Below are positions 8,636 to 64,000 of a DNA stretch of 64,000 bases, piece by piece. This DNA is from Escherichia phage vB_EcoS_ESCO40. The notes under the pieces are model-generated. The model was not told where the DNA came from and made no database searches. It saw nothing but the letters and a program-made list of their open reading frames with translations. Each line of letters opens with the position of its first letter. Within the stretch, counting starts at the first letter, position 1. Position numbers and translations under genes: made by a program. Location: sequence record NC_106514.1; one strand, written 5' to 3'.

Positions 8636-9599
8636 TGTAAAAGGCTTTATTAGGCGTTGTCAAGAAGCATATTATCAAGGCATGTCTTTAATCTCTGATG
8701 AGGAGTATGATTGCCTGGTAAAACGCTTCCCGTTAGAAGAAGAGATCGGGCCTAAAGGTGATATTCCACATCTGTATCGTATGTATTCTTTACAGAAAGT
8801 TTATTATAATCGTGGAGATAAACCCCCATTTAACCCCTTAGGTCAGGTAGAAACTGATAAGTTAGATGGTTGTGCAATTTCTCTGTTATATATTAACGGC
8901 GAATTTGTCCAAGCATTAACCCGTGGTAATGGTATTCTAGGGAATGATGTCACAAGCAACGTAAGATTGCTGAACATTCCTAAAAAGATTTCCCAAAAAG
9001 TACCTACTCAAATCACTGGTGAAGTTCTAATTACAAAAGAAGTAGAAAATAAACGTAACTTTGCCTCTGGTGCTATTAACCTCAAAGATAGTGATGATTT
9101 CGTACAACGCATTGGAGAAGGCGGTTTAATCTTTGTTGCTTACGGTATCCAATGTTCTGCTGAATCTGTAGGTATTACAGAAGCATACTTAAAAGATATG
9201 CTTTGGCTAGAGAATGAGAACTTCTTAACAGTTGTTAATGTGCGTTCCTTCTTTAAATGGATTCCGACGGACGGTAAAGTTGTTCGTATTAATGACAACA
9301 ACAAATTCTTCCGTGAAGGCTGGACTAATAAATTCCCTCGTGGAGCATTCGCTATTAAAGAGGATGAAGAAGGCGAAATTACAACTCTTACTAAAGTTGA
9401 ATGGCAGGTAGGGGCTTCTGGTAAAGTAACTCCAGTTGGTTATTTCGAACCGGTAATTATTGATGATGCTACAATTGTTAAGGCGACTCTTAATAACGTT
9501 GATTATATTAACTCTCTCGATCTAGAGATCGGTTGCCAGATTCGAGTGATTCGTGCTGGTGGTGTAATCCCGTGCATAGTAGAGCGAGTATACGATTAA
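8625..9599 (+). CDS. NAD-dependent DNA ligase, N-terminal fragment (Ia-like, adenylation and OB regions)
   Basis: KLDG adenylation motif (KxDG); SDEEYD Ia-like segment; ends where a Zn-finger would follow in an intact LigA. Confidence 0.8.
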   Translation: MMNNVKGFIRRCQEAYYQGMSLISDEEYDCLVKRFPLEEEIGPKGDIPHLYRMYSLQKVYYNRGDKPPFNPLGQVETDKLDGCAISLLYINGEFVQALTRGNGILGNDVTSNVRLLNIPKKISQKVPTQITGEVLITKEVENKRNFASGAINLKDSDDFVQRIGEGGLIFVAYGIQCSAESVGITEAYLKDMLWLENENFLTVVNVRSFFKWIPTDGKVVRINDNNKFFREGWTNKFPRGAFAIKEDEEGEITTLTKVEWQVGASGKVTPVGYFEPVIIDDATIVKATLNNVDYINSLDLEIGCQIRVIRAGGVIPCIVERVYD

Positions 9600-9649
9600 T
9601 ACATAACCCTTTGCTACCCATCTACCATATCGGAATTATAAAGTGGTTA

Positions 9650-9678
9650 TTGACATTTTCGCCGCTTAGGTATATACT
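9650..9678 (+). promoter_or_regulatory. sigma70 consensus-like promoter in the ligase gap
   Basis: TTGACA-17 bp-TATACT. Confidence 0.6.
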
Positions 9679-9742
9679 ATTATCATTCAGTTGAGGGATA
9701 GAAAGTTATGGCGAGGGTAAGCAAAGTTAGTTAAAATTGTAG

Positions 9743-9771
9743 TTGCTAAATGCTTAAATACTTGCTATAAT
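9743..9771 (+). promoter_or_regulatory. T5-type early promoter (P5)
   Basis: TTGCTA-17 bp-TATAAT then ATTTATATAAATTGATAAGGAAG. Confidence 0.75.
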
Positions 9772-9801
9772 ATTTATATAAATTGATAAGGAAGAAATTT
9801 G

Positions 9802-10581
9802 ATGAAAATCGAAATTCCAACACAATGTCCCTCTTGTGGTTCTAAGCTAGATCTTGTCAACGGACAATTATTCTGTCGTAATAAGTCCAACTGTCCAGCG
9901 CAATCAAGTAAGTTAATTGAGAACTTCTGTACAAAAATGAAGTTAAAGGGCTTTGGCCCGAAAACTATTGAGAAGCTGGAGCTGACGAAGATTTCAGAAC
10001 TATTTTACCTAACCGAAGAAGATTTGGTTAGAGCCGTGGGTAGCAAGGTTGCCGCTAAGTTAATTAGCGAATTAAATACTAAAGTTCGCGGAGACATTGA
10101 CTTTGGTTCAGTTCTCGGTTCTTTAGGAATCCCTCTAATTGGAGAGGTTGCAGCAAAGAAATTGTCCCAAAATTGCACCAGTTTTCAAGATGTGAGAGCT
10201 GATGGCAAAGCTGGAGAAAATTATAAAGCCTGGCTAAATTCCCCACAAGGCAAGGATGTTATCGAATTACCGTGGAAATTCACAACTGGTATTAAAGGTG
10301 CTAAAGCTGGGGTCATCATTACTGATGGTCTAGTAGCCCAGCCAAATGGAATCACGGTGTGTATTACCGGGTCTTTGCAAGATTTTGCAAATAGAACGGA
10401 TGCAACAAATTATTTAGAAGGTCTAGGGTATACTGTTAAAAAATCAGTTACCAAAGACGTTAAATACCTAATCTGTGAGGATGAATCGAAGCGTTCTTCC
10501 TCATCTTATAAGAAAGCCGAAACGAATGGGATAGAAATCCTGTCGATTAAAGAACTATTGGAGAAAAATAATAATGTCTAA
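9802..10581 (+). CDS. NAD-dependent DNA ligase, C-terminal fragment (Zn finger, HhH, BRCT-like)
   Basis: CPSCGS...CRNKSNC zinc finger at N-terminus; ITGSL BRCT-like segment; TAAGGAAG RBS 8 nt upstream. Confidence 0.75.
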   Translation: MKIEIPTQCPSCGSKLDLVNGQLFCRNKSNCPAQSSKLIENFCTKMKLKGFGPKTIEKLELTKISELFYLTEEDLVRAVGSKVAAKLISELNTKVRGDIDFGSVLGSLGIPLIGEVAAKKLSQNCTSFQDVRADGKAGENYKAWLNSPQGKDVIELPWKFTTGIKGAKAGVIITDGLVAQPNGITVCITGSLQDFANRTDATNYLEGLGYTVKKSVTKDVKYLICEDESKRSSSSYKKAETNGIEILSIKELLEKNNNV

Positions 10582-51006: not shown

Positions 51007-52764
51007 TTAGGTAAGGCGCTGAACTGTTACTCTTAATCTAGGTAGGAAAACTGCGCTACCCAAACTCACGTGCATAACTACTCCTAACTCTACATTTCCA
51101 TTTCCTAAATTTTTAACAGTGTATATAAAACTGTTCCTACTTAGAGCATTGTTAGGTGTATATCTAAAAGCAGATGTAGTATGAAAAGGTACTAGATAAC
51201 CCACAGGTAGCGTTAAAATCTGGTGGAATATTGCATCTCCATTACTATAACTATGCGCTTTTCTTCCTTGTACTTGAAACACACCATTATTCCATGTATT
51301 AGCTGGAACACCCGCACAATTAAGATTACCTGATATAACTTCAGTAGTAAGAATTACTGTAGCATTTCCGCCTGGTATACCTAGCCCAATAGTTGATAAA
51401 CCAACGTATCTGTCCCCAGTTCCTGGATAGTGGGGTGTAATATCATCTCCCATATAAGAACTACCTACATTTCCACTAAAAAGTCGAAGTGGAACTGCTG
51501 ATGGTCCCCAAACAACCCCATGTTCATTACCAATAGTATTATTATTTGAGTTTACGTACCATTGTTTACCGGCCCCAAATTTATAAATGCTAATCTGTGA
51601 TTTAGCTCCCCCATAATCTACAGGAGACCACAACCCTCCGTTACTAGATCCTACAAGTTCACACCTTGCAGTGGTGTCCCCAAAAACCCCAGTATACGCT
51701 GCGTTATTCCCTATATACTCCATATCAGGACGATAACCTAGGTTACCAAAGGCATTCTGATTTATAAATTTATATCCGGTATTAGGGAGACTTACCCCTT
51801 TAATTATGAAATTAGAAGGAGATATAAGAATATCAGAACCAGTAAAGGGATTGCCGGAAATACTCATTCCACCATTAGAGTACCTTAAATTAAGAACATA
51901 CCAAATAACCTTAGTAGGAGTTATATTATACCAGTCCTGTAGTATTGTAGAGTCACCCGACTGGTTGGCCAGATTAGTAGTAGATCCCCTACAAACAAAT
52001 CTGTTCCCGCCGTCGTGGTACATAGTATTTACACTACCTGGGAGCCCTTGCCTAACCCCACCATACCCACGTATATTAGAATTACAAACATAAAACCAAT
52101 CATGCCCTCTATGCGCTGCCCCTAGGGGTGACATCCATCCAGGATCCCAATAGTACTGGTTATTCCCATCTACAGGTACTGTGCTACTATTAGTAGGAAA
52201 ACCTAATTGTGCAAAGGCTTCTGCAACAGTAACACCTACAGGAGCTCCCGCACCGGGCCTAACTATACCATGGTATGTACTATGTAACGTAGTACCCCCT
52301 GTGCCACTCCTAGAGATAGATTCTTCGTGCCCTATCGAGGGATTATAATTATAAGTTCCAGATGCTAGACTATTACCGAAGGCAAATCCACTGGTTTGAG
52401 AAACACTAGCAAAAGATCTAAAGGGATCTGCCTGGGTGGCAACTATAGTTTGACCAACTTTACTCTGAGTACCATTAAGAAAAGCTCTGTGAGTACCATT
52501 AATTTCAATAGCAGTTAGTATAACTCTACCAGGATCGTTAGATTTAATATTTACTATATCAGAAGGCATTTGACATACAAAAAACCCATTCCCGGCATTG
52601 CCTAATCCTGCCTCATAAGTACCATCAACTAGAACAAATGGCATATCACTATGAAAAATACTATTATTGTTTGGACTATAGTGACGATTAATGTCACCAC
52701 CAGATTCAGTATTTAAAGATAGTACGGTCTTACCATCGCTATATTTTCCAGCGAAAAAACCCAT
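51007..52764 (-). CDS. receptor-binding tail protein (pb5-like)
   Basis: 585 aa, Gly/Asn/Ser-rich; N-terminus MGFFAGK and C-terminus VQRLT resemble T5 pb5 as recalled; divergent from the lipoprotein gene. Confidence 0.7.
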
Positions 52765-52789
52765 ATAATCTCCTATTATAAAAATGTAT

Positions 52790-52818
52790 TTGCTTTCATC
52801 CCTCTATTTTGCTATAAT
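52790..52818 (+). promoter_or_regulatory. T5-type early promoter (P9)
   Basis: TTGCTT-17 bp-TATAAT then AGACTCATAAATTAGAAATGGAGAG. Confidence 0.75.
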
Positions 52819-52849
52819 AGACTCATAAATTAGAAATGGAGAGATAAAT

Positions 52850-53116
52850 ATGAAAAAGTTTGTAATTGCACTAGTTGCCACAGTTATGTTATCTGGTTGT
52901 GCACCTGCTCCCAAACCATTTTGTACGGGATTTGTAAAATCTTTTGGCGGTGCGGGAGAAGAACATTACGGTCTCAAGGTTCAAAAAGTTCGTATTAAGG
53001 GAGATCGCTTTCCAGTAGTACAGCTCCGTACTAAATTTGGGTGGTGGGATCTCAGTCAGTTTGACCTTAAATATGGTGATTGTAAATTTAAACTAGAGCA
53101 ATCTAATTACCTGTAA
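52850..53116 (+). CDS. llp: lipoprotein, Llp-like (receptor-blocking superinfection exclusion)
   Basis: Signal peptide with lipobox MLSGC; divergent arrangement next to the receptor-binding protein gene. Confidence 0.7.
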   Translation: MKKFVIALVATVMLSGCAPAPKPFCTGFVKSFGGAGEEHYGLKVQKVRIKGDRFPVVQLRTKFGWWDLSQFDLKYGDCKFKLEQSNYL

Positions 53117-53718: not shown

Positions 53719-53950
53719 TATTATAGTTGCTTTTATTATCGGGATAATCGCGGGAGTTTTCGGAATGACTGCGGCTATTAACAAGCATCGTAAGTATACT
53801 GCGGAAGTATCGCGGGAGATTGCGGAAAGAGAGCGAAAGTTTGACGAGAAACGTGCGGAGTTTGACGAGAAACGTGCGGAGTTTGAGCGGGAGTGGAATG
53901 ATGGTTCAAGAAGTTCTCGGAGGAGATTCAAGATAAATGGCAAATCATAA
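53711..53950 (+). CDS. small membrane protein (79 aa)
   Basis: Hydrophobic helix IIVAFIIGIIAGVFGMTAAI then charged tail with duplicated FDEKRAE. Confidence 0.5.
   Translation: MFSIIVAFIIGIIAGVFGMTAAINKHRKYTAEVSREIAERERKFDEKRAEFDEKRAEFEREWNDGSRSSRRRFKINGKS
53838..53879. repeat. 21-bp direct duplication inside the small membrane-protein gene
   Basis: GTTTGACGAGAAACGTGCGGA occurs twice in tandem. Confidence 0.8.
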
Positions 53951-54434
53951 ACCTCTTCTATCATTAGAAGAATATAAGAAAAAATATGACTATGATCCAG
54001 AGGCAGGTATATTTACTTGGAGTTCAGGGAGTCGTAAAGGTAAACCAGCAGGTAGTAGAAATAGTTCAGGAATATCCCTATCAATGGGTAGTAATGGGTT
54101 GTATAAGGCTCATCGGGTAGCGTATCTATACATGACAGGAGAAGACCCGGGTGAGTTTCTCATTGACCACAAAGATCAAGACCCCTTTAACAATAGATGG
54201 AATAACTTACGTAAAGCAACAAATGCAGAGAATGGAAAAAACTCTTCGGGATGGAAGAATGAGTCTACAGGGGTTAAGGGAGTATATAAACGCGGAGAGG
54301 GAAAGTTCGAAGCAAAACTACGTGTAAATGGTAATAGAATTACCATAGGAACTTTTAAAACTCTTGAGCAGGCTGAAAAAGAACTTAGAAAAGCCAGGGA
54401 GCATTACCACGGTGAGTTTGCAAACCATAATTAA
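53937..54434 (+). CDS. HNH homing endonuclease with AP2-like domain
   Basis: IDHKDQDPFNNRWNNLR HNH motif; GVKGVYKRGEGKFEAKLRVNGNRITIGTF AP2-like segment; paralog of the 19948-20478 product. Confidence 0.8.
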   Translation: MANHKPLLSLEEYKKKYDYDPEAGIFTWSSGSRKGKPAGSRNSSGISLSMGSNGLYKAHRVAYLYMTGEDPGEFLIDHKDQDPFNNRWNNLRKATNAENGKNSSGWKNESTGVKGVYKRGEGKFEAKLRVNGNRITIGTFKTLEQAEKELRKAREHYHGEFANHN

Positions 54435-54554
54435 TTAGCACTAAAATGACTTTTGCCAAATTTCATAAGATTACACATGGAGGTGTGCTCACTGCCTCCG
54501 GCGAAAATACTTAGTCTCCTAACCGCCACCCCCGTTACTATTACTCTGCTAACT

Positions 54555-54591
54555 GTTTCACCCTGCAACCATTTTAATTGCAAGGTGAAAC
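54555..54591. terminator. long hairpin between convergent genes
   Basis: 14-bp stem GTTTCACCCTGCAA/TTGCAAGGTGAAAC (one mismatch) with 9-nt loop; no clear U-tract. Confidence 0.35.
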
Positions 54592-54608
54592 AATTTCAAC
54601 TTTAATTG

Positions 54609-55343
54609 TTAGGCAACTTTTAATTTCTCGATGTACTGTTGCGGGCTGCAACTATATTCTGCGCGTTCTTCCTCGGTCATACTTTCCCAGCATAATTTTA
54701 AACGGTCGGCTAGAAATTGATAATCATTATCATCCTCAAGAGATTCATCAATAAAGGTTTCACCTATCAATGTGACACCGATTGATAGAATATCGTTAAT
54801 AGCTTGCGCGTCCAGCGTTTTAAATCCGTATGATGCCGCCGCTGATAGCACGCCTTTATGATCATCAATCATAGTAAAATCAGCGTTCGGATAAAGCTGT
54901 TTAAATAACTCAAAGTAATGGCTTTTATATATAGCGTCTTTACTGTGGTATATTTCGCTAACTTTATCAGCTTCAAAATATTTGTGCAGTGTATCGCGGG
55001 AAAATACGCGGATATTACTATCCCCACGCCCTCGCAGTCCTTGCTTGCGTAGGTAATAATAATCGGACTTGCTCATCAGTCGAGCGGTGCAGATAATGTT
55101 TAACGTGTTAACGTCATTCATACATTGGCGCATATATGTAACAAGCGGCAAGAGTGTATCTTGCATTATTAAATCGTGTTTACATGCTTCATTCTTGTAC
55201 TTATTTAGATCTAGATTGCCGTCGCTATCAAAGCAAGGCGCTACGCGATGGAATGAATTAACGATAGTGCCATCTAGATCCCAAATCATGACGCGGGAAA
55301 TATGCGGGAAATTACGGGTAATATTCGTTTTAACTTGATTCAT
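54609..55343 (-). CDS. dmp: HAD-family deoxyribonucleoside 5'-monophosphatase-like protein
   Basis: 244 aa; MIWDLDGTI HAD motif I; position next to A2-like and A1-like genes. Confidence 0.6.
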   Translation of the reverse strand: MNQVKTNITRNFPHISRVMIWDLDGTIVNSFHRVAPCFDSDGNLDLNKYKNEACKHDLIMQDTLLPLVTYMRQCMNDVNTLNIICTARLMSKSDYYYLRKQGLRGRGDSNIRVFSRDTLHKYFEADKVSEIYHSKDAIYKSHYFELFKQLYPNADFTMIDDHKGVLSAAASYGFKTLDAQAINDILSIGVTLIGETFIDESLEDDNDYQFLADRLKLCWESMTEEERAEYSCSPQQYIEKLKVA

Positions 55344-55417
55344 TTTGTTACGTTCTCCTTTTAAGGGATTAAATTAAATTAATCCAGCCCACTGGATGGG
55401 CTGGACTATTCCAGCTA

Positions 55418-55813
55418 TCAAAGACCATAAGCCAACGCATCGGCGATGACGGTAATATCCTCGCCCGATACATCGGAACGAATGCCCGCGCATGTAAATA
55501 CCTTCGCACTCATTAGCTGATCATCCAGACAAGCGGGGCAAGGCGCGACAACTGCGAAAGCTAAACCTGATTTTACGGCGTCGATGATAGTCGTTTCCTG
55601 CTTCACTGTGTCAATATAAACGCCTTTCGCCTTGATGCGGCTGGATAGTTTGCCCGTGGTATAGGCGAAAGTCGTGATCTGTAGCGCCTCGTTAAACTCG
55701 ATTAAATCATCGACAACGTGACCGGCCTCAACGTGATACCGCTCACCATTTGAATAAACTAGGACGATGGAAGAACGAGCGCGATCGAATGGAATACGGT
55801 TAGAAATAGCCAT
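55418..55813 (-). CDS. pre-early protein, A2-like
   Basis: 131 aa; assignment by size and position between dmp-like and A1-like genes. Confidence 0.4.
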   Translation of the reverse strand: MAISNRIPFDRARSSIVLVYSNGERYHVEAGHVVDDLIEFNEALQITTFAYTTGKLSSRIKAKGVYIDTVKQETTIIDAVKSGLAFAVVAPCPACLDDQLMSAKVFTCAGIRSDVSGEDITVIADALAYGL

Positions 55814-55885
55814 GTTTATAGCTCCAATTAATTTAATAAACTTTTATAGCGGCTATATTTCAAGCCGCCAACCTGATTTATTGGC

Positions 55886-57559
55886 TTACTGTACAAAAAA
55901 TTTGCCGTTCTTAAAGTCGATCAAAGTGCGCTGGCCGTTCGCATAGGTAATAACATGCGTTTGCGTCCAGCTCGACGCGCCAACGTTATAGCCCATGTCC
56001 AGACTACCAGATACGCCAGCGGTATAAACGCCGCCGTAAATGCTGGCGGTGTGAGTGTGCCCCGTGTTTAATTTGCCCAATTTCTTAAATTGCTTCGGAT
56101 TGCCACGGCTCCCGTTAATGCCATTGTGACCGTGTACACCGCACTCAATGCCTGCAATCTTGAAAGATTGATCAGTGGTCAGGAAAATAGCGTTAAATTC
56201 ACAACCTGCAACCTTGCGCAGCGCATAATCCAGCACGTTGAAAGTATCGTCTTTTTCTGCAATAGCTCCGTAAATCGCAGCATTAAGGCGGTGATATAGT
56301 TCCGCGTTGGCTGGATCGTCTTTAATGTTAGCATTACGATCATCAAGCCAACGGGATAACGCCAGATCATGGTTAGATTCAACAATGATCGTTTGAGCAA
56401 AATCGCGCTCCATTGATTCCAGTACGCGCCCGGTATCGATAAGGTCATCCAGAACTTTATCACGTCCGGCGGCGTATTGTTTTGCTAGGAATACACCAGA
56501 AGCGCGGTTGTGATGATTGCGCGATGTAAAATCATGCACGTCATGCACGAATTGATATTTTGGTTTAAGAATATCAACAAGCCCGTAGGTATCACCATGC
56601 CCCCACGACGCAGCGGCGCACTCCTCATCCAATTTTTCGGCGTGTATGTCGCCATATTGCAAGCCTAAAACATGATCGGACGTTTCAAAGCATCCGGCGG
56701 GAGTGGCGCAAATATTCAAATCGTAAAACATGCCGCTTTCGTCCATCGTTTCAAGCTGGCGAACAAAAAATTCACCGTCCTCGTCAAACTCAACAATCAG
56801 CGCACCAAAATTATGTAGCGCCTCGGCCTTTTGCCCTGCCTTTTGCTGAATGTAGTTTTTGAGCGTTGCCGTTCCGGTCGAGTACATACGGCGCACTACT
56901 TCACCTTTTAAAGCTGGGACGCTTTCGGCGGTGATTTTAGCCGCTCCAATTGCCAGACCTTCCAGATTAAGCGCGGTTGCAGTTTCAGCGAATCCAGAAA
57001 GCGGATAATCTGCAGTTGGTAACACGTTAATCTCAGCCATGAAAGCAAAACGGCGATTATTCAAAAACACGTTTTTATTGCAGATATATTTATCAAACGC
57101 AGAATCATATTTGATTCCGTCCGCGCCCTCACCATTTTGAAAACCGTTTTTATTATAAATATACTTGCTAACCAGCAAATCAGCGCCAATAAATTGGGCA
57201 TATTGTTCAAGCGAGGATAAAAAGTTTTTATGCGGGAAAGTATTATTCTGAATCGATGTAATAATAAAGCGTTTACCTTGTTTTACTTCCCAGCTTTCCA
57301 CCGTGCTAGAAATAACTCCAGCGGCTTCAGGGCGGTCATCGTTTTTAATAGCTTTTACAGTTTTTGCCGCTTTTGGTTTCGCTGGTTTATTTGCTTCCAG
57401 CCAATCACAAATAGCGGTGGAATGCTTTGGAGTATCGTAAACCATTTTAGAAATATCGTCACATACTTCCAATTTAGTGGCGCGCAGACGTTTACCATAG
57501 AAATTAAAGTCAGCGGCCATTTTCAGGATAACGGTTTGTTTTTCTGCGGAAATAATCAT
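55886..57559 (-). CDS. A1: pre-early protein A1-like (metallophosphoesterase-type)
   Basis: 557 aa; calcineurin-like motifs GDIHAE, GHGD, NHD, GHTH in the C-terminal half; position and size match T5 A1. Confidence 0.6.
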   Translation of the reverse strand: MIISAEKQTVILKMAADFNFYGKRLRATKLEVCDDISKMVYDTPKHSTAICDWLEANKPAKPKAAKTVKAIKNDDRPEAAGVISSTVESWEVKQGKRFIITSIQNNTFPHKNFLSSLEQYAQFIGADLLVSKYIYNKNGFQNGEGADGIKYDSAFDKYICNKNVFLNNRRFAFMAEINVLPTADYPLSGFAETATALNLEGLAIGAAKITAESVPALKGEVVRRMYSTGTATLKNYIQQKAGQKAEALHNFGALIVEFDEDGEFFVRQLETMDESGMFYDLNICATPAGCFETSDHVLGLQYGDIHAEKLDEECAAASWGHGDTYGLVDILKPKYQFVHDVHDFTSRNHHNRASGVFLAKQYAAGRDKVLDDLIDTGRVLESMERDFAQTIIVESNHDLALSRWLDDRNANIKDDPANAELYHRLNAAIYGAIAEKDDTFNVLDYALRKVAGCEFNAIFLTTDQSFKIAGIECGVHGHNGINGSRGNPKQFKKLGKLNTGHTHTASIYGGVYTAGVSGSLDMGYNVGASSWTQTHVITYANGQRTLIDFKNGKFFVQ

Positions 57560-57655
57560 AGTAATAAAACTCCATTAAAGGGATTAAAAACGTTTGTTAT
57601 TGGCAATATTGCCAGATATAACGCCGCAAATGAGTGGCGTTATAATTTGCAACAT

Positions 57656-57853
57656 TTAACTAATAGGCATTAGGCTGGCACTAACCCCACAAGCAACGGC
57701 GGCGATTAAGCAAAGTAAACCCAACCGCCTTGCTAAATTAGCCTTGCGTTTAAAATAATATGAATCCAGATCATTTTGAAAATAAGCAAACAATAATGAG
57801 GCGGCCATAATAAATAAGCCTAGAATGAGGGATTCAGTAGGGTAAAAGATCAT
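57656..57853 (-). CDS. small membrane protein (65 aa)
   Basis: Two hydrophobic segments (LILGLFIMAASLLFAYF and LGLLCLIAAVACGVSASLM). Confidence 0.5.
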   Translation of the reverse strand: MIFYPTESLILGLFIMAASLLFAYFQNDLDSYYFKRKANLARRLGLLCLIAAVACGVSASLMPIS

Positions 57854-57909
57854 TTTAAAACTCCAGTCAAAGGGAAATTATAGTGGGGAATAATCCCCAC
57901 TAATTAAAT

Positions 57910-58326
57910 TTATTCGCCAGCGGCTTGTTTTACTTCATCGGCAACGCCTAACAGTTGCGCCACGGCGTCCAGCGTTTCCAATTTTGCACTTTCCAGCGAG
58001 GCCAGATCATCGGCGTCTTTGATAATACCGGAATCGATCGCATGTTTTGCAATAACGCGCACATAATGCGCTTTACGAATGGAACTACCGCCGCCAACCT
58101 TGCGAGGTTTATCGCTTTTCTGATACGCTTTCGCGCTGGTCAATTTTGAGCGAACAGACACGGGAGAAGTCGCGCCAACTGTTTTAGCAATCTCTTTCAG
58201 GCCGTCGCTGTTGGCGAACTCTAATCCATTTTCATTGATTAGCTGTTGATACATAGTAACAGCCTGTTGGGTGTTTTCTTCATTCCATGCGAATTTTGCA
58301 GATTTTTCGGTTTTAACGTTAGCCAT
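57910..58326 (-). CDS. hypothetical protein (138 aa)
   Basis: ORF in the leftward pre-early operon; no motif recognised. Confidence 0.5.
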   Translation of the reverse strand: MANVKTEKSAKFAWNEENTQQAVTMYQQLINENGLEFANSDGLKEIAKTVGATSPVSVRSKLTSAKAYQKSDKPRKVGGGSSIRKAHYVRVIAKHAIDSGIIKDADDLASLESAKLETLDAVAQLLGVADEVKQAAGE

Positions 58327-58422
58327 GATTATAACTCCTATTGAATTAATTTAAGGGATAAGATTAACATAATGTTAATCGTTATATCCCCCGAACTACT
58401 GGGGGATATAAAAGTAACACTA

Positions 58423-58674
58423 TTACGCTACAGCTTCAAATTTTTCGTTCCGCTGGACAACCTTTACAACGTCGCCGGATTTAACCCGAACGTTATAAAT
58501 AGTTTTCCCGTTGTTACTCCGTTCCGTTTCAGCATATACCGCATCAATCACATCGAACGGCATAAGCGCCGCGCCTTTGATGCGTTCGGCCTTTCCAGTT
58601 GCCTCATCCGTTTTAGTAACGAAAGGAATAAAAACGGATTGACCAATTTTAGGCGCGGTAATAACGTTTTTCAT
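58423..58674 (-). CDS. hypothetical protein (83 aa)
   Basis: ORF in the leftward pre-early operon. Confidence 0.45.
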   Translation of the reverse strand: MKNVITAPKIGQSVFIPFVTKTDEATGKAERIKGAALMPFDVIDAVYAETERSNNGKTIYNVRVKSGDVVKVVQRNEKFEAVA

Positions 58675-58901
58675 AGTATAAACTCCTAGTTATTTGGGGA
58701 TTGTTCCGCATTACCTGCTAGAAAGTAGCAGGTAATAAGAAAAAATCCGCTCGCCAATATAATCAATTTAAAGAACTCCACTCAGGCCGCTATATCCCAG
58801 TTAGGGGGCGGGACACATTATGGTAAGTGCCGACCGTCAAATTGTATCAAGTTATCGCTCTTATCGAACTGGGTACATCTTAAAGCCTATCGGCTAGGGT
58901 G

Positions 58902-59105
58902 TCAAACAATTTTTTGCAGTTTTTTATGATTTTCTTTCAGGTCAATCATAATATTTCGCCAGATCATTTCCAGACCTTGCTGGCGGCCTTTCTTGTACTG
59001 CGTGAATCTATATCTTACGGATTGTTGAGCTATTGTCAACAATTTTTTAGTATTGCCATCCAATTTTTTGGCTGGTTTACCAGTTATCAAAAGCGTTTGT
59101 TTCAT
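58902..59105 (-). CDS. hypothetical basic protein (67 aa)
   Basis: Lys/Arg-rich ORF; AAGGA RBS 9 nt upstream on the minus strand. Confidence 0.45.
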   Translation of the reverse strand: MKQTLLITGKPAKKLDGNTKKLLTIAQQSVRYRFTQYKKGRQQGLEMIWRNIMIDLKENHKKLQKIV

Positions 59106-59725
59106 ATCTGCGATTCCTTATATAATTGATAAGTTTACCGCCGATAGACTTTAAGATATACCCAATTTTTAAAGAGCGCGGCGGTAAACTTCCCGCCGTT
59201 GTAGTCCGTTGCCGTCCTACGAGATAAATAATAGCAAATACCAAAAATGGCGCAACCTTATTTTTGTAAAGAAACGTAAAGAAAGCAACACGTCCGGCGT
59301 TCACCTAAGTTTAAAGGAAACGGGCGCGCGAATACCACAAAACACAGCAGATAGGCAAGTAATTTTTTCATTTATATTTGCCTTGCCCTACTTGACAAAA
59401 CTTAAAAAGCTCAAGGCGACGATAAACGGCTTATCCCTTTATGATGGCATACCTGAAAATTTTACCGCTTTCTAGGACGTTTTAGGCGGCTTATTTTCGA
59501 CTTAACAAATATTTAACAAAAGCAAAATTGAAAAATAGTTTGAAAAGATATTGACTTTTTAAAATCAAGATTAAACGAGTTATTTTATAAAATTAATTAA
59601 TTGACTTTTATTTGACGTTGTGTATTAGAAAGATAGCAGACTAATAATTGCTAGGATGATAATCATGCTGGTGGATTGTAACAGCCTGAACTATTAGCAG
59701 ACTATTAATCACGGAAAATCTCATT

Positions 59726-59754
59726 AGCCAACTAACTATTTCCTGAGTTATAAT
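59726..59754 (+). promoter_or_regulatory. promoter-like element with T5-type downstream leader (P10)
   Basis: TATAAT followed by ATAAGCATAAATTAATGAGAT matching the conserved leader of the early promoters; weak -35 (AGCCAA). Confidence 0.45.
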
Positions 59755-59805
59755 ATAAGCATAAATTAATGAGATAATAATAATTATAAGAAATCGTAAC
59801 CAATA

Positions 59806-59897
59806 GAAATAATAACTATAAAAATAATAACTATAAAAATAATAACTATAAAAATAATAACTATAAAAATAATAACTATAAAAATAATAACTATAAG
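59806..59897. repeat. 15-bp tandem repeat, about 6 copies
   Basis: AATAACTATAAAAAT repeated head to tail. Confidence 0.9.
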
Positions 59898-59934
59898 AAA
59901 CTATCGGCCTAAGTGAGAACCACTATCATTTAAG

Positions 59935-59943
59935 TTATCCACA
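59935..59943 (+). promoter_or_regulatory. DnaA box (perfect 9-mer)
   Basis: TTATCCACA. Confidence 0.5.
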
Positions 59944-59994
59944 AGTTTATTAACAGCACTTTTTGACTTGACACGATAGGCGGCGATATAAGGG

Positions 59995-60044
59995 CTTATC
60001 CACAGACTTATCCACAGGTTATCCTACTGTATAAATATACAGGG
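59995..60044 (+). promoter_or_regulatory. composite element A: two tandem DnaA boxes plus a LexA-box-like palindrome
   Basis: TTATCCACA at 59996-60004 and 60008-60016, then TACTGTATAAATATACAGGG (CTGT-N8-ACAG) at 60025-60044. Confidence 0.55.
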
Positions 60045-60308
60045 TAGAAAGGTAGTGTTAACAACTGCAATCAATTTTAAGCGGCCTAAATCGCTTTCTA
60101 ACGAGCTAAATGCAGTGGGGTAATATTAAAGTAAAGCCTTCACCCGCCGCCCTGGTGGCTTCGCCGTGTTTTGCTCTTTACTATACCGCTGCGCGGTTAG
60201 CATAAAACTAGGCGTTAGGCAAGGAAAATAAAAAGGTAAAATAATATTTGCCCCTAGAAAGAAAATACCCTTATCATTCACTCACCGATTAACGAGGGAG
60301 TCCAACAA

Positions 60309-61286
60309 ATGAGGCTGTATAAACCAGATAATGCCACCGTCTTAAAAGGTGCGCTGCGCAACCTGCTGGACGGTAGCAGAACAACCAGCATTAAGCACTT
60401 TGTTAACAAGGCCGAAGATATTCACCAAAATTTTTTTGATGATTTCGATGCCTATGATATGAGTAGTTTTTTGCAATTGTATAAGCAAGGGGCAACGCTT
60501 GTTTTGTATAATCGAGATAATCACCTGCTTACTAGTAGGGGGCCGGATACTGATTTTATAATTGTAAAAGGTAGCACAGTAAAAGCCTATGACACTGGGG
60601 CGGGCTTAGAAGTTTTTTCAATAGAAAACTATGAAGCCAACCCCAATGATCTTTATGACGTTGAAAACTTTCTTGATTCATTTTGGCGTTATTTATCAGT
60701 TGGCTGGAATCGGTCAATTGGTGACGGTTATCGTCTGGCGGCTGTAATGGCTTTTGATGATGATGGCAATTTTTTGCTACCGTCGGAAATATACCCTTAC
60801 GTATATGATGGGGATATAGAAAGCGCGGGCTTTTCTTTCTGGAAGGAGGAAGATCAGCCTATTGACAATATAGAAAAACATGCGGTAAATTCTAACGCTC
60901 AAACCATTGAAAACAAAGGAAAAAATACCATGACCAAGATCGCTAATATCGTTGCCGCTAATAAGTCTGCCGTTGTAAATGCTGCAAAATTGGAAGCGGG
61001 TAAAATTGCACTGACTCAAATCACGAAAGTAGCGGCTAAAAAAGCGCCGTTTATGATTAAAGGCTATATTGATACGCCTATCGGTCGGGTAGTGATTGCT
61101 AACCTGCTTAGCGTGGTGGTTGACCAGTATGCCCCTAGCAACCAGAAAGCGAAAGCGGTAGCGGGTGCAGCTATGGAAGCGGCTATGTTAGAAATGGTGC
61201 AAAGTTTTAACATTGCTGAAATGATTGACGAAATGGTGAAAGGTATTGATATTTCTACTTTTACCGTTAACACCGAAAACGAGTAA
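60309..61286 (+). CDS. hypothetical protein (325 aa)
   Basis: GAGGGAG RBS 9 nt upstream; no motif recognised; first gene of the rightward cassette. Confidence 0.6.
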   Translation: MRLYKPDNATVLKGALRNLLDGSRTTSIKHFVNKAEDIHQNFFDDFDAYDMSSFLQLYKQGATLVLYNRDNHLLTSRGPDTDFIIVKGSTVKAYDTGAGLEVFSIENYEANPNDLYDVENFLDSFWRYLSVGWNRSIGDGYRLAAVMAFDDDGNFLLPSEIYPYVYDGDIESAGFSFWKEEDQPIDNIEKHAVNSNAQTIENKGKNTMTKIANIVAANKSAVVNAAKLEAGKIALTQITKVAAKKAPFMIKGYIDTPIGRVVIANLLSVVVDQYAPSNQKAKAVAGAAMEAAMLEMVQSFNIAEMIDEMVKGIDISTFTVNTENE

Positions 61287-61313
61287 TAGTTAACCTAGTG
61301 TAAAGTTTTGTAA

Positions 61314-61340
61314 AGGTCGCCATAATCGGCGGCCTTTTTT
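61314..61340 (+). terminator. intrinsic terminator
   Basis: GGTCGCC/GGCGGCC hairpin (one G-U pair) followed by TTTTTT. Confidence 0.6.
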
Positions 61341-61348
61341 GTTATAAT
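61340..61348 (+). promoter_or_regulatory. extended -10 promoter element
   Basis: TGTTATAAT (TGn-TATAAT) directly after the terminator T-tract. Confidence 0.4.
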
Positions 61349-61405
61349 GCCTTTACACCAAAACGGTGGATTGAAAATTTTCCCAAAAAATTTTGGAGGC
61401 TTAAA

Positions 61406-61636
61406 ATGGTTGCTTACTCTTCTTCTGACGCTCTTTTCACTGGAAAAGGCTGGGTATCAAATCGCTGGATCATTCAAGAAATGGTGCAAGAATATGGCAT
61501 TGCTAAAACTTACACTACCATTCAGGCGCTTTATGATAATGATCAAATCGATCAGCAAACGGCGGGCTTTTTGCTGGATACCCTAAAAGCGGAACATTGT
61601 ACTAAAAAACAAGCCGCAAAAATTATTTTAATGTAA
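61406..61636 (+). CDS. hypothetical protein (76 aa)
   Basis: GGAGG RBS 7 nt before ATG. Confidence 0.55.
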   Translation: MVAYSSSDALFTGKGWVSNRWIIQEMVQEYGIAKTYTTIQALYDNDQIDQQTAGFLLDTLKAEHCTKKQAAKIILM

Positions 61637-61682
61637 TTAATAACGGGGCGTTATTTTCGCCCCGCTAACTAGGAGAATGAAA

Positions 61683-61832
61683 ATGGTTATTTTTCGAGCT
61701 ATTCTGGCGGGTATCTTGGGCGCTATTTTATCACTTTTTGCCATAGCTTTCGGCGTTCACGCGGTTATTGTTGGCGCGGGTATCGCTGTATTTTCTTATC
61801 TGCTGGGCTGCATGACTAGTAAAGGAGAATAA
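61683..61832 (+). CDS. small membrane protein (49 aa)
   Basis: AGGAG 7 nt upstream; almost entirely hydrophobic (two predicted helices); not in the ORF track because it is under 60 aa. Confidence 0.45.
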   Translation: MVIFRAILAGILGAILSLFAIAFGVHAVIVGAGIAVFSYLLGCMTSKGE

Positions 61833-61834
61833 AA

Positions 61835-62047
61835 ATGATTCGTAACGTTTCCCTTGCTCGTTCAAAGGGTTTTAGGCTGGTGGACGTTAACACGTTCGAG
61901 CGGGAAGACTGTAAAATCGAATATGTAGCACGGAATAAAAACGCCTTCCGTGTTACAGAAAAGAAATTCGATAAGCGCGGCAACGTGATCGCTGAAACGG
62001 TTAAATATTTTGCCACCTTTTACGCTGCGTTTCGTGGGGTACTATGA
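61835..62047 (+). CDS. hypothetical protein (70 aa)
   Basis: AAGGAGAA RBS; Lys/Arg-rich. Confidence 0.55.
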   Translation: MIRNVSLARSKGFRLVDVNTFEREDCKIEYVARNKNAFRVTEKKFDKRGNVIAETVKYFATFYAAFRGVL

Positions 62048-62178
62048 AAAACGTTATTATTATTATTATCCTTGCAATGGTTGGCGGTTTTACCGCCACC
62101 TTGTTTAAGAATGACCCCCTTTTACTGGGGGTTTTTATGCTTTTATCAGGCTATCTGATCGGGAGGATATGCAAATGA
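62044..62178 (+). CDS. small membrane protein (44 aa)
   Basis: Start overlaps upstream stop (ATGA); hydrophobic VIIIIILAMVGGFTATLF and LLLGVFMLLSGYLIG; under 60 aa. Confidence 0.4.
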   Translation: MKNVIIIIILAMVGGFTATLFKNDPLLLGVFMLLSGYLIGRICK

Positions 62179-62519
62179 TCATTTACGAGGGCAATCGTTT
62201 TGTTACTAATTGCCGCCCAGCATTATTAGCAAACTATTTAAACCAGCTTTCGCCAGCTTATAAGGGCGTTATTAATATTTATGAAGGCAAGGCGCACTAT
62301 AAAATCAATGCGGTCGTTGCCCGTGAACTAGCGTTTCAATTTTTGACCTTTGCATCTTGCGACGTTCAGGTTATGGGTGAGGCATTAATCGCAGAAAATG
62401 AAGATGATTTTATTAATATTTTCCGTAAGGTGTGCACCGAGCGCCTGATAATGAAAGGCGCATATATTCAATCCACGGCTGATAGTATTGAAACAGCGTT
62501 TCGAAAGGTGGCGCAATGA
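62169..62519 (+). CDS. hypothetical protein (116 aa)
   Basis: GGGAGG RBS upstream; no motif recognised. Confidence 0.55.
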   Translation: MQMIIYEGNRFVTNCRPALLANYLNQLSPAYKGVINIYEGKAHYKINAVVARELAFQFLTFASCDVQVMGEALIAENEDDFINIFRKVCTERLIMKGAYIQSTADSIETAFRKVAQ

Positions 62520-62611
62520 GATTATATATTTTCGCGGGCAATGTTGAGGCTGCAAATGATTCCGCTGGTGGCGATAACGTTCGCCACTACTGGCAAAAAT
62601 ATATTTACTAG
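62516..62611 (+). CDS. hypothetical small protein (31 aa)
   Basis: Start overlaps upstream stop (ATGA), fills an otherwise empty 100-bp gap. Confidence 0.3.
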   Translation: MRLYIFAGNVEAANDSAGGDNVRHYWQKYIY

Positions 62612-62619
62612 GGGTTACT

Positions 62620-62814
62620 ATGAGCAATAAAATTATTGTGACCAAAACCACCACAACGGTTGACGTTTTTTATGTGCCCGATACGCCGGAAAACCGGCAA
62701 GCGGTCGAACGTGGTGAATATGATAGCGTAATTTATGACGCTGATGGTTATTATCAGCATTTGGTCGATTCCTATGGGGAAGAGGAGAAGATCACGCATC
62801 AATTACCAGACTGA
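62620..62814 (+). CDS. small acidic protein (64 aa)
   Basis: About 14 Asp/Glu against about 5 Lys/Arg; last gene before a terminator. Confidence 0.55.
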   Translation: MSNKIIVTKTTTTVDVFYVPDTPENRQAVERGEYDSVIYDADGYYQHLVDSYGEEEKITHQLPD

Positions 62815-62820
62815 CAACAA

Positions 62821-62844
62821 ACGGGGAGCAGATCCCCGTTTTTC
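62821..62844 (+). terminator. intrinsic terminator
   Basis: ACGGGGA-GCAGA-TCCCCGT hairpin followed by TTTTCAC. Confidence 0.7.
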
Positions 62845-62954
62845 ACACCTGCAACCAGATAACCCCTTGTTTTAGTATCCCCGCCAAAATTAAACGCGTT
62901 AGAATGCGATCTAGGACGTTTTAAGCCTATATTAGAATTATTCACTGCATAGGA

Positions 62955-63064
62955 ATACTGTATAAATATACAGTAGAATAACCTGGGGATAAGTCTGTGG
63001 ATAACGCTTCAAAATGGCTAGGATTCTGTCAAGGCAAATCGTGCTGTTGATAAGTCTGTGGATA
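62955..63064 (-). promoter_or_regulatory. composite element B: LexA-box-like palindrome plus two DnaA boxes, inverted relative to element A
   Basis: TACTGTATAAATATACAGTA at 62955-62974 (one mismatch to the SOS-box consensus as recalled); TGTGGATAA at 62995-63003 and 63056-63064. Confidence 0.55.
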
Positions 63065-63093
63065 ACCTAAATAACAGTGTTTCTCACTTCCAT

Positions 63094-63290
63094 TCTTAAA
63101 TGAGAATCATTATCATTCGCATTCCACTATCTAACCGATAATCATTTCCTTTCTTAAATGAGAATCATTTCACTTTTTGAATAGTTCTCATTCTCTTTCT
63201 TAAATGAGAATCAATCTCATTTCATTTTCTAAATGCGAATTATTATCATTCTCATTCCGCTTTTTAAATGATAATGATTCTCATTATCAT
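63094..63290. repeat. array of about 5 AT-rich direct repeats (TCTTAAATGAGAATCAT-type)
   Basis: Copies at about 63094, 63153, 63198, 63227 and 63262; the last contains GATAATGATTCTCATTATC, 17 of 19 matches to the Fur-box consensus as recalled. Confidence 0.7.
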
Positions 63291-63328
63291 TCGCATTCAG
63301 GCGAGCAGGGCAATTGCCCTGCGCTTTT

Positions 63329-63929
63329 GTGCAAATCCGACAATTGCTCCAAGGGTTACGTGCTGGCGTGTATGTGCAAATCCGACAATTTTTGGTAGTG
63401 TGCAAATCCGACCCGAAAAATTTTTATAGTGTGCGAATCCGACAATGAATTTTCCTAAAAACTCCAGCAATCACGAACTGCGTTCGAATCCTGTGGGATA
63501 TGTGCAAATCCGACACGGTTTTTCTAGGATTAAGATGTGCGAATCCGATGAAGTTTTTGTGAGTTCGATTGGAAGGTGTGTGATTGTATGGGTTTGTGGA
63601 GAAGGTGAGAGAGCGAGAGAAATTTGGTGGGCTAGAAGGATGTGGTCGCAGGATTGGTGTGGAGCACCTGGTTTGCGGGGATTTTGGGGAAGAGTTGAGA
63701 TAATTTGGGGAAATTTGAGATAGGTGCAGAAAAAGTAAAATTTTATTAGCAAAATGGGGCAAAATAGCTTGACAAGTGAAAATTCTTGTGGCTCTAAAAA
63801 CTCAGGCAATCATGGGCCTTCGGCCCGAAATAATGCTGCTATTTTCAGGAGAGTAAGAGTTCCTAAAAACTTAGGCGTTTGTGCAAATCCGACCATAAAT
63901 TTCTAGAAACACAATGTGCGAATCCGACA
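63329..63929 (+). repeat. eight dispersed direct copies of a 14-bp motif GTGC(A/G)AATCCGA(C/T)
   Basis: Copies at 63329, 63374, 63400, 63431, 63502, 63537, 63881 and 63916, all in the same orientation, each followed within 12 nt by a T-run. Confidence 0.85.
63575..63730 (+). other. G+T-rich strand-asymmetric tract
   Basis: About 150 nt almost devoid of C on the plus strand (GGTGTGTGATTGTATGGGTTTGTGGAGAAGGTGAGAGAGCGAGAG...). Confidence 0.7.
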
Positions 63930-63970
63930 GTAATTTCTGGAAATGTGTTTTCAAAAAATGTCTTCTAGAA

Positions 63971-64000
63971 ATAACCGCCCTCCCTATAACCGCCCTCCCT
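63971..64000 (+). repeat. 15-bp direct repeat, 2 copies, at window edge
   Basis: ATAACCGCCCTCCCT twice in tandem. Confidence 0.8.

Follow-up and report, generated by a model that had tools for sequence, protein, structure and literature searches.

Known pre-early genes of a T5-like Escherichia phage in a terminal-repeat segment: a corrected place for A2 and a raised third-position GC content

The question raised by positions 54609-57559 of Escherichia phage vB_EcoS_ESCO40 (sequence record NC_106514.1) is which pre-early genes they hold, what their base composition reflects, and whether the repeat in which they appear to lie marks an end of the genome. Experiments on the phages T5 and BF23 have shown that their DNA is transferred in two steps and that this requires A1 and A2 (Davison 2020; PMC10644984; Annor et al. 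2026, bioRxiv 10.64898/2026.04.02.716235), and a first-pass annotation of the stretch analysed here, a window of 64,000 nt, had read the interval as a minus-strand dmp, A2 and A1 module of higher GC content, located after the late genes and running into a terminal repeat copy.

The nearest records share about 91-92% DNA identity with the window, which points to a T5-like phage (Tequintavirus). A 4.5-kb query around the interval matches 473 phage records, nearly all of them from T5-like phages of Salmonella, Escherichia and Klebsiella, with the best matches (vB_EcoS_VAH1, BF23 and HdH2) at ~91% identity, and a longer query, of 22 kb, agrees with this at a best identity of ~92%. The DNA is collinear with the left repeat of T5 (reference NC_005859) and with the right repeat of BF23 (reference OR083247), at 86-93% identity. 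The interval almost certainly holds the promoter-distal genes of a leftward pre-early operon, from a T5-like phage that belongs to Tequintavirus or is closely related to it, and lies inside a terminal-repeat segment of ~9.3 kb. This module is already known: these are the textbook pre-early genes of T5, in their usual place and with 96% protein identity, and the window adds a new isolate to a phage group known to carry them. The locus has low weight as a discovery, and its practical outcomes concern the annotation, the repeat boundaries, the assembly, a statement on GC content at third positions (GC3) and the structure of A1. The features of the segment are the following:

54486..63794, no strand: terminal-repeat (first-step-transfer) equivalent, 9309 bp, with boundaries placed by homology to T5 and BF23
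54609..55343, minus strand: dmp, 5'-deoxyribonucleotidase of 244 aa, HAD fold; 96% identical to T5 Dmp; PHROG 415, E=2e-56
55380..55408, minus strand: terminator-like hairpin between the 131-aa ORF and dmp, a 13-bp stem followed by a T-rich tail; consensus match only
55418..55813, minus strand: T5.002 homologue of 131 aa, not A2; 83% identical to T5.002 (E=1e-86); PHROG 4576
55886..57559, minus strand: A1, 557 aa, with a predicted layout of N-terminal helical domain, linker, beta-rich middle and C-terminal metallophosphoesterase domain
55889..56671, minus strand: A1 residues about 297-557, predicted calcineurin-like metallophosphoesterase domain with GDxH, HDxxD, SNHD, GxH and GHxH motifs
57656..57853, minus strand: T5.005 homologue, small membrane protein of 65 aa; PHROG 4820, E=3e-32; syntenic with T5.005 and BF23_00179
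57910..58326, minus strand: A2, DNA-binding pre-early protein of 138 aa; 93% identical to T5 A2; PHROG 1725 'DNA binding protein', E=3e-51
58423..58674, minus strand: T5.007 homologue of 83 aa, DUF7177; Pfam PF23801, E=2e-41; PHROG 3747
58902..59105, minus strand: T5.008 (hdi) homologue of 67 aa; 96% identical to T5.008; overlaps the promoter region of the leftward operon

All three ORFs proposed for the interval are present with exactly the limits given to them (54609-55343, 55418-55813 and 55886-57559), and their overall reading as first-step-transfer genes of T5 was right, since alignment with T5 A1 and dmp gives 96% identity for each. The naming of the module as dmp, A2 and A1 stands for the two orthologues at its ends and falls for the gene between them. 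That this 131-aa ORF is the A2 homologue, so that the interval would hold dmp, A2 and A1, could be argued from its size, close to that of T5 A2 (135 aa), and from its position adjoining A1; against it, the ORF has no similarity to T5 A2 (BLASTP E=29), belongs to PHROG 4576 and not to 1725, and is 83% identical to T5.002, a hypothetical protein in the T5 annotation. Moreover, A2 has a 93% identical counterpart in another ORF, at 57910-58326, and the BF23 and T5 annotations put A2 beyond A1, which leaves the A2 reading of the 131-aa ORF with practically no probability. The true A2, of 138 aa here, lies outside 54609-57559, on the other side of A1 and in the same leftward operon, whereas the 131-aa ORF is, as judged from its sequence, the homologue of T5.002, which is dispensable in T5 (Annor et al. 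2026). In the corrected annotation, therefore, the 131-aa ORF is T5.002-like and A2 is located at 57910-58326; the order dmp-A2-A1 given earlier is likewise replaced, the order in T5 being dmp-002-(003)-A1-005-A2-007.

Leftwards from the promoters near 58.9-59.0 kb the genes follow one another as hdi/008, 007, A2, 005, A1, 002 and dmp, and this order (dmp-002-A1-005-A2-007-008 along the window) agrees with the T5 and BF23 annotations. Upstream of the operon, sigma-70-like sites, consensus matches only, are found on the minus strand at 59039-59012 and 58905-58877, and the former falls where the T5 promoter P-H22 maps by alignment of the window with T5. Between the 131-aa ORF and dmp, a BF23 terminator is annotated at the place homologous to the hairpin at 55380-55408. 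Following the T5 literature, the pre-early genes would sit on the segment that enters the cell first and, after first-step transfer, would be transcribed by the host sigma-70 RNA polymerase; A1 would then degrade the host chromosome and shut off pre-early transcription, and Dmp would dephosphorylate the released dNMPs to nucleosides, which would be excreted.

A1 is 96% identical to T5 A1 over 555 aa (BLASTP) and falls in PHROG 1745 'DNA transfer protein' (E=4e-243). The GDxH, NHD and GHTH motifs noticed in the 557-aa protein are readable in the translation at residues 303-306, 396-398 and 500-503 (G303-D304-I-H306, S395-N396-H397-D398 and G500-H501-T-H503) and are invariant in the aligned homologues, down to ~42% identity. 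Searching 5.8 billion proteins gave 805 homologues of A1, and in 45 of these that were aligned (42-90% identity), D304, H306, H339, D340, D343, N396, H397, H476, H501 and H503 are invariant. All five metal-binding motifs are found, namely DxH (D304/H306), the GDxxD type (H339-D340-x-x-D343), the GNH[DE] type (S395-N396-H397-D398), H (H476) and GHxH (H501/H503), and at the level of sequence the invariant residues give A1 the five-motif signature by which calcineurin-like metallophosphoesterases are recognized.

The AlphaFold model of A1 is confident (pLDDT 89, pTM 0.81). In it, three helices form an N-terminal unit, followed by a disordered linker (residues 63-82) and by middle domains rich in beta structure; the C-terminal domain starts at ~297 and in the predicted structure has the characteristic beta-sandwich phosphoesterase fold. 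The closest structural relatives of this C-terminal domain are the DNA exonucleases PolD DP1 and SbcD/Mre11; with the full-length model, Foldseek gave no match at E<=0.001. A1 has no Pfam match even at E<=10, no NCBIfam match and no relevant match among PDB sequences, either as a single sequence or as a profile, and for this reason its C-terminal domain is predicted to be a calcineurin-like metallophosphoesterase on the basis of the motifs and the modelled structure. A match to 3-dehydroquinate dehydratase in the PDB profile search (E=0.0016, over the SNH segment) is local and spurious, disagrees with the fold results and was attributed to chance.

In T5, A1 is necessary and sufficient for the rapid degradation of the host chromosome in vivo (Annor et al. 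2026), with which the earlier statement that A1-type proteins drive host DNA degradation agrees. The same authors predict A1 to be a metallophosphatase similar to nucleases of repair and proofreading, and report it in all of the 227 Demerecviridae that they analysed, as a hallmark of the family (Annor et al. 2026). Our structural comparison independently agrees with this recent proposal of A1 as a DP1/Mre11-like metallonuclease, and the protein itself may be a metal-dependent DNase.

In the 244-aa Dmp, the HAD motif recognized in the first reading is indeed legible as DLDGT at residues 22-26 (D22-L-D24-G-T26) and corresponds to HAD motif I. The complete set of motifs I (DxDxT), II (S/T), III (K) and IV (DD) is present, with D22, D24, T26, T86, K140, D160 and D161 invariant in 29 homologues. 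The AF2 model has a pLDDT of 82, with a poorly predicted C-terminal helical extension of ~55 aa (pLDDT 50-67), and the top 50 matches obtained with it by Foldseek in the PDB are all HAD enzymes (best E=2e-4, probability 1.0, TM 0.3-0.5), including the T4 PNK phosphatase and a human deoxyribonucleotidase. By sequence, Pfam HAD_2 matches Dmp with E=0.14 and 12.7 bits (cutoff 23.8), over motif I only, PDB HAD chains match the Dmp profile with E 0.06-0.17, and the homologues of Dmp carry PF26880. The levoglucosan kinase match in the PDB profile search (E=0.005) is again a spurious local one, at odds with the fold results, and was set aside as a chance event.

The higher GC content ascribed to the module was found by the sliding-window check for the interval as a whole, with 0.437 against 0.3935 for the whole window (z=2.5; 1.65% of the sliding windows of the same length are as high), but not for dmp, which at 0.397 is not elevated. 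The excess is unevenly distributed: A1 has 0.448, the 131-aa ORF has 0.492, the highest value among the 53 ORFs of >=100 aa in the window, and among all 1674-nt stretches of the window the one that begins at 55381 has the highest GC (0.477). The mean GC3 of the 11 ORFs of the repeat, on both strands, is 0.42, compared with 0.30 for the 46 other ORFs (Mann-Whitney p=9e-7), and codons rare in E. coli make up 4.1% in the former and 7.0% in the latter. T5 behaves likewise, with GC3 of 0.39 vs 0.32 (p=0.006; A1 0.434, A2 0.449). The excess is better described as a raised third-position GC common to all the pre-early ORFs, and in this form an impression of GC richness becomes a testable statement on the third-position composition of the pre-early class.

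A high GC content might instead mark a recently acquired foreign island, or mere amino-acid composition, with no tie to the pre-early class, and it is true that A1, A2 and the 131-aa ORF have a high GC at first positions as well (GC1 0.53-0.57) and that the whole repeat has a total GC of just 0.409 vs 0.391 in the rest of the window. We regard this explanation as distinctly unlikely: the excess is strongest at the third positions and is common to the ORFs of both strands, and, because the signal is kept in T5 and A1 occurs throughout the family, it would be an old property of the lineage, not one imported recently, and horizontal acquisition is an unlikely cause of it. The reading of the GC excess as a class-wide codon signature, with third positions that are richer in GC and resemble those of the host, and with fewer codons rare in E. 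coli, in which two-step injection would have shaped codon usage by temporal class, is put forward tentatively and with somewhat less than even confidence. The pre-early genes would have to be translated with the host tRNA pool alone, as the phage tRNA genes would arrive minutes later on the second-step DNA; in T5 the tRNA genes (about 25 annotated) are at 28-41 kb, in second-step DNA, and in the 64-kb window no tRNA genes were found. Translation with host tRNAs only is a plausible cause of the GC3 shift of the pre-early genes, of whose codon bias a literature search found no explicit report.

With regard to the repeat, the alignment places position 54486 of the window on nucleotide 1 of T5 and on the base where the right repeat of BF23 is annotated to start, at 123 nt from the dmp stop codon, the same distance as in T5, and position 63794 on the end of the T5 left repeat (10219) and on the last base of the BF23 record. 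The boundaries agree to the base with both phages, and the termini of BF23 were determined experimentally with PhageTerm (PMC10644984). To the left of the repeat, the late region ends with a receptor-binding protein, a receptor-blocking lipoprotein, small ORFs and an HNH endonuclease. The coding part is followed on its right by a non-coding injection-stop region, in which DnaA boxes are clustered and inverted repeats occur: positions 59935-60016 and 62996-63065 contain all five exact TTATCCACA DnaA boxes of the window, within an inverted repeat of 132 nt, and this region aligns with T5 9264-10219, including most of the annotated iss. The earlier suggestion that the window runs into a terminal repeat copy is correct in that the interval follows the late genes and lies in the repeat; however, the window crosses the whole repeat-equivalent and exits on the other side.

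Beyond 63794 there are 206 nt more, which match T5 10220-10421 almost perfectly, a sequence that is unique in T5 and follows its left repeat. Since the one copy stands between the context of a right end and that of a left end, it probably reflects, as far as the sequence indicates, a collapsed or circularly permuted assembly (or a concatemer junction) and not a genome end. The alternative is that a linear record physically ends here in a genuine right terminal repeat, which would extend on the right at least 206 nt beyond those of T5 and BF23, and that the assembly is neither collapsed nor permuted. Repeat ends do vary among relatives, as in the chee24-type records with annotated right repeats, which end at about window position 63586, ~208 nt before the T5/BF23 position, and TGTGCRAATCCGAC repeats continue on both sides of 63794. 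This alternative is nevertheless rather unlikely, as the ends of T5 and BF23 coincide exactly at one homologous base, the sequence past this base is the unique T5 sequence just described, and several relatives of 104-113 kb, such as phiAPCEc03 (103.7 kb), SSP1 and phiLLS, deposited as collapsed records, align straight through the same point. Given a probable single collapsed repeat copy in the source sequence, the genome would truly be ~9.3 kb longer than assembled.

When compared with known enzymes, the predicted nuclease domain of A1 has ~13-16% sequence identity to PolD DP1, the archaeal proofreading exonuclease, and to SbcD/Mre11, with no similarity at the HMM level, and unlike them A1 carries N-terminal helical and middle domains of its own. 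In addition, in contrast to SbcD/Mre11, no Rad50/SbcC partner is encoded near A1, whose nuclease role is a predicted one. The T4 PNK phosphatase domain and the human cytosolic deoxyribonucleotidase have in common with Dmp the HAD motifs I-IV and, as seen in the model, the HAD fold, although with 10-19% identity and modest TM-scores (0.33-0.46).

The left repeat of T5 (dmp T5.001, T5.002, A1 T5.004, T5.005, A2 T5.006, T5.007 and hdi T5.008; NC_005859) has the same genes in the same order and orientation as the window, with protein identities of 83-96%, and the same architecture of DnaA boxes and inverted repeats further right. A1 is 557 aa long here and 556 aa in T5. In contrast, T5 carries T5.003 and the homing endonuclease hegG (T5.010), both absent in the window, and its repeat measures 10219 bp vs 9309 bp; a further difference from T5 is the HNH endonuclease ORF at 53937-54434, just outside the start of the repeat. 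This ORF is also missing in BF23, which has no match to window positions 53866-54450. The right repeat of BF23 (9743 bp) is collinear with that of the window at 90-93% DNA identity, likewise lacks T5.003, and starts and ends at the same homologous bases as 54486 and 63794, but the BF23 record stops at the repeat end whereas the window continues beyond it. The receptor-binding protein of BF23 is of ~595 aa, from its coordinates, and that of the window is of 585 aa, and in both phages the receptor-blocking lipoprotein adjoins it.

The 11 ORFs lying within the terminal-repeat equivalent (54486-63794, with ends inferred by homology to T5 and BF23) are distinguished by their codon composition: the GC content at third codon positions is 0.42 for the whole set vs 0.30 in the 46 other ORFs of the window (p=9e-7), and codons rare in E. 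coli are scarcer among them. T5 shows the same trend. The tRNA genes of that phage are located on second-step DNA, and no tRNA genes were found within the 64-kb window. The features that mark the repeat and its surroundings are listed below.

51007-53116, region containing the receptor-binding protein gene (585 aa) and the adjoining lipoprotein ORF
53937-54434, plus strand, HNH endonuclease ORF of 165 aa (Pfam HNH_3, E=2e-13; PHROG 99)
59788-59907, tandem array of about 6-7 copies of the 15-nt AT-rich unit ATAAAAATAATAACT
59911-60042 and 62958-63089, arms of a 132-nt inverted repeat, 78% complementary
59935, 59996 and 60008, plus strand, DnaA boxes TTATCCACA
62996 and 63057, minus strand, DnaA boxes TTATCCACA
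63321-63934, at least nine irregularly spaced copies of TGTGCRAATCCGAC

At the right edge, the sequence past the inferred repeat end (63795-64000) aligns with T5 10220-10421, which is the unique DNA that follows the left repeat of T5; this match indicates that the source assembly is probably circularly permuted and contains a single, collapsed copy of the repeat. The copies of TGTGCRAATCCGAC straddle the inferred end. At the left edge, the HNH ORF terminates 52 nt short of the inferred repeat start; it is missing in BF23 and carried by VAH1, NBSal003, SSP1 and others, and is therefore likely to encode a homing endonuclease that inserted where unique sequence meets the repeat. In the receptor-binding region, the receptor-blocking protein is an 88-aa lipoprotein with a lipobox, whose gene adjoins that of the receptor-binding protein and is divergently transcribed. 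The receptor-binding protein is close in length to that of BF23 (about 595 aa from coordinates), and the DNA alignment with this phage covers just part of its gene, from 52450 onwards.

Among the pre-early proteins, Dmp had no Pfam match because of the date of the library rather than the protein itself: the Pfam copy searched was a release lacking PF26880, a family present, as a precomputed match, in all 42 of 42 Dmp homologues. In A1, residues 1-60 (57380-57559) are confidently predicted to form a three-helix unit, after which comes a disordered linker, and some distant homologues have precomputed Pfam helix-turn-helix matches (PF13384, PF13936, PF04218, PF02796). This unit could be related to the reported interactions of A1 with DNA or RNA polymerase.

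The two divergent pre-early operons are separated by a non-coding gap in which the ATAAAAATAATAACT array sits, and here the GC content per kilobase reaches its minimum in the window (0.318). The rightward operon is flanked by both arms of the inverted repeat, inside which fall all five exact DnaA boxes of the window. This DnaA-box inverted repeat is the counterpart of repeat regions 2 and 3, or injection-stop region, described in T5-like phages (Davison, bioRxiv 10.1101/866236).
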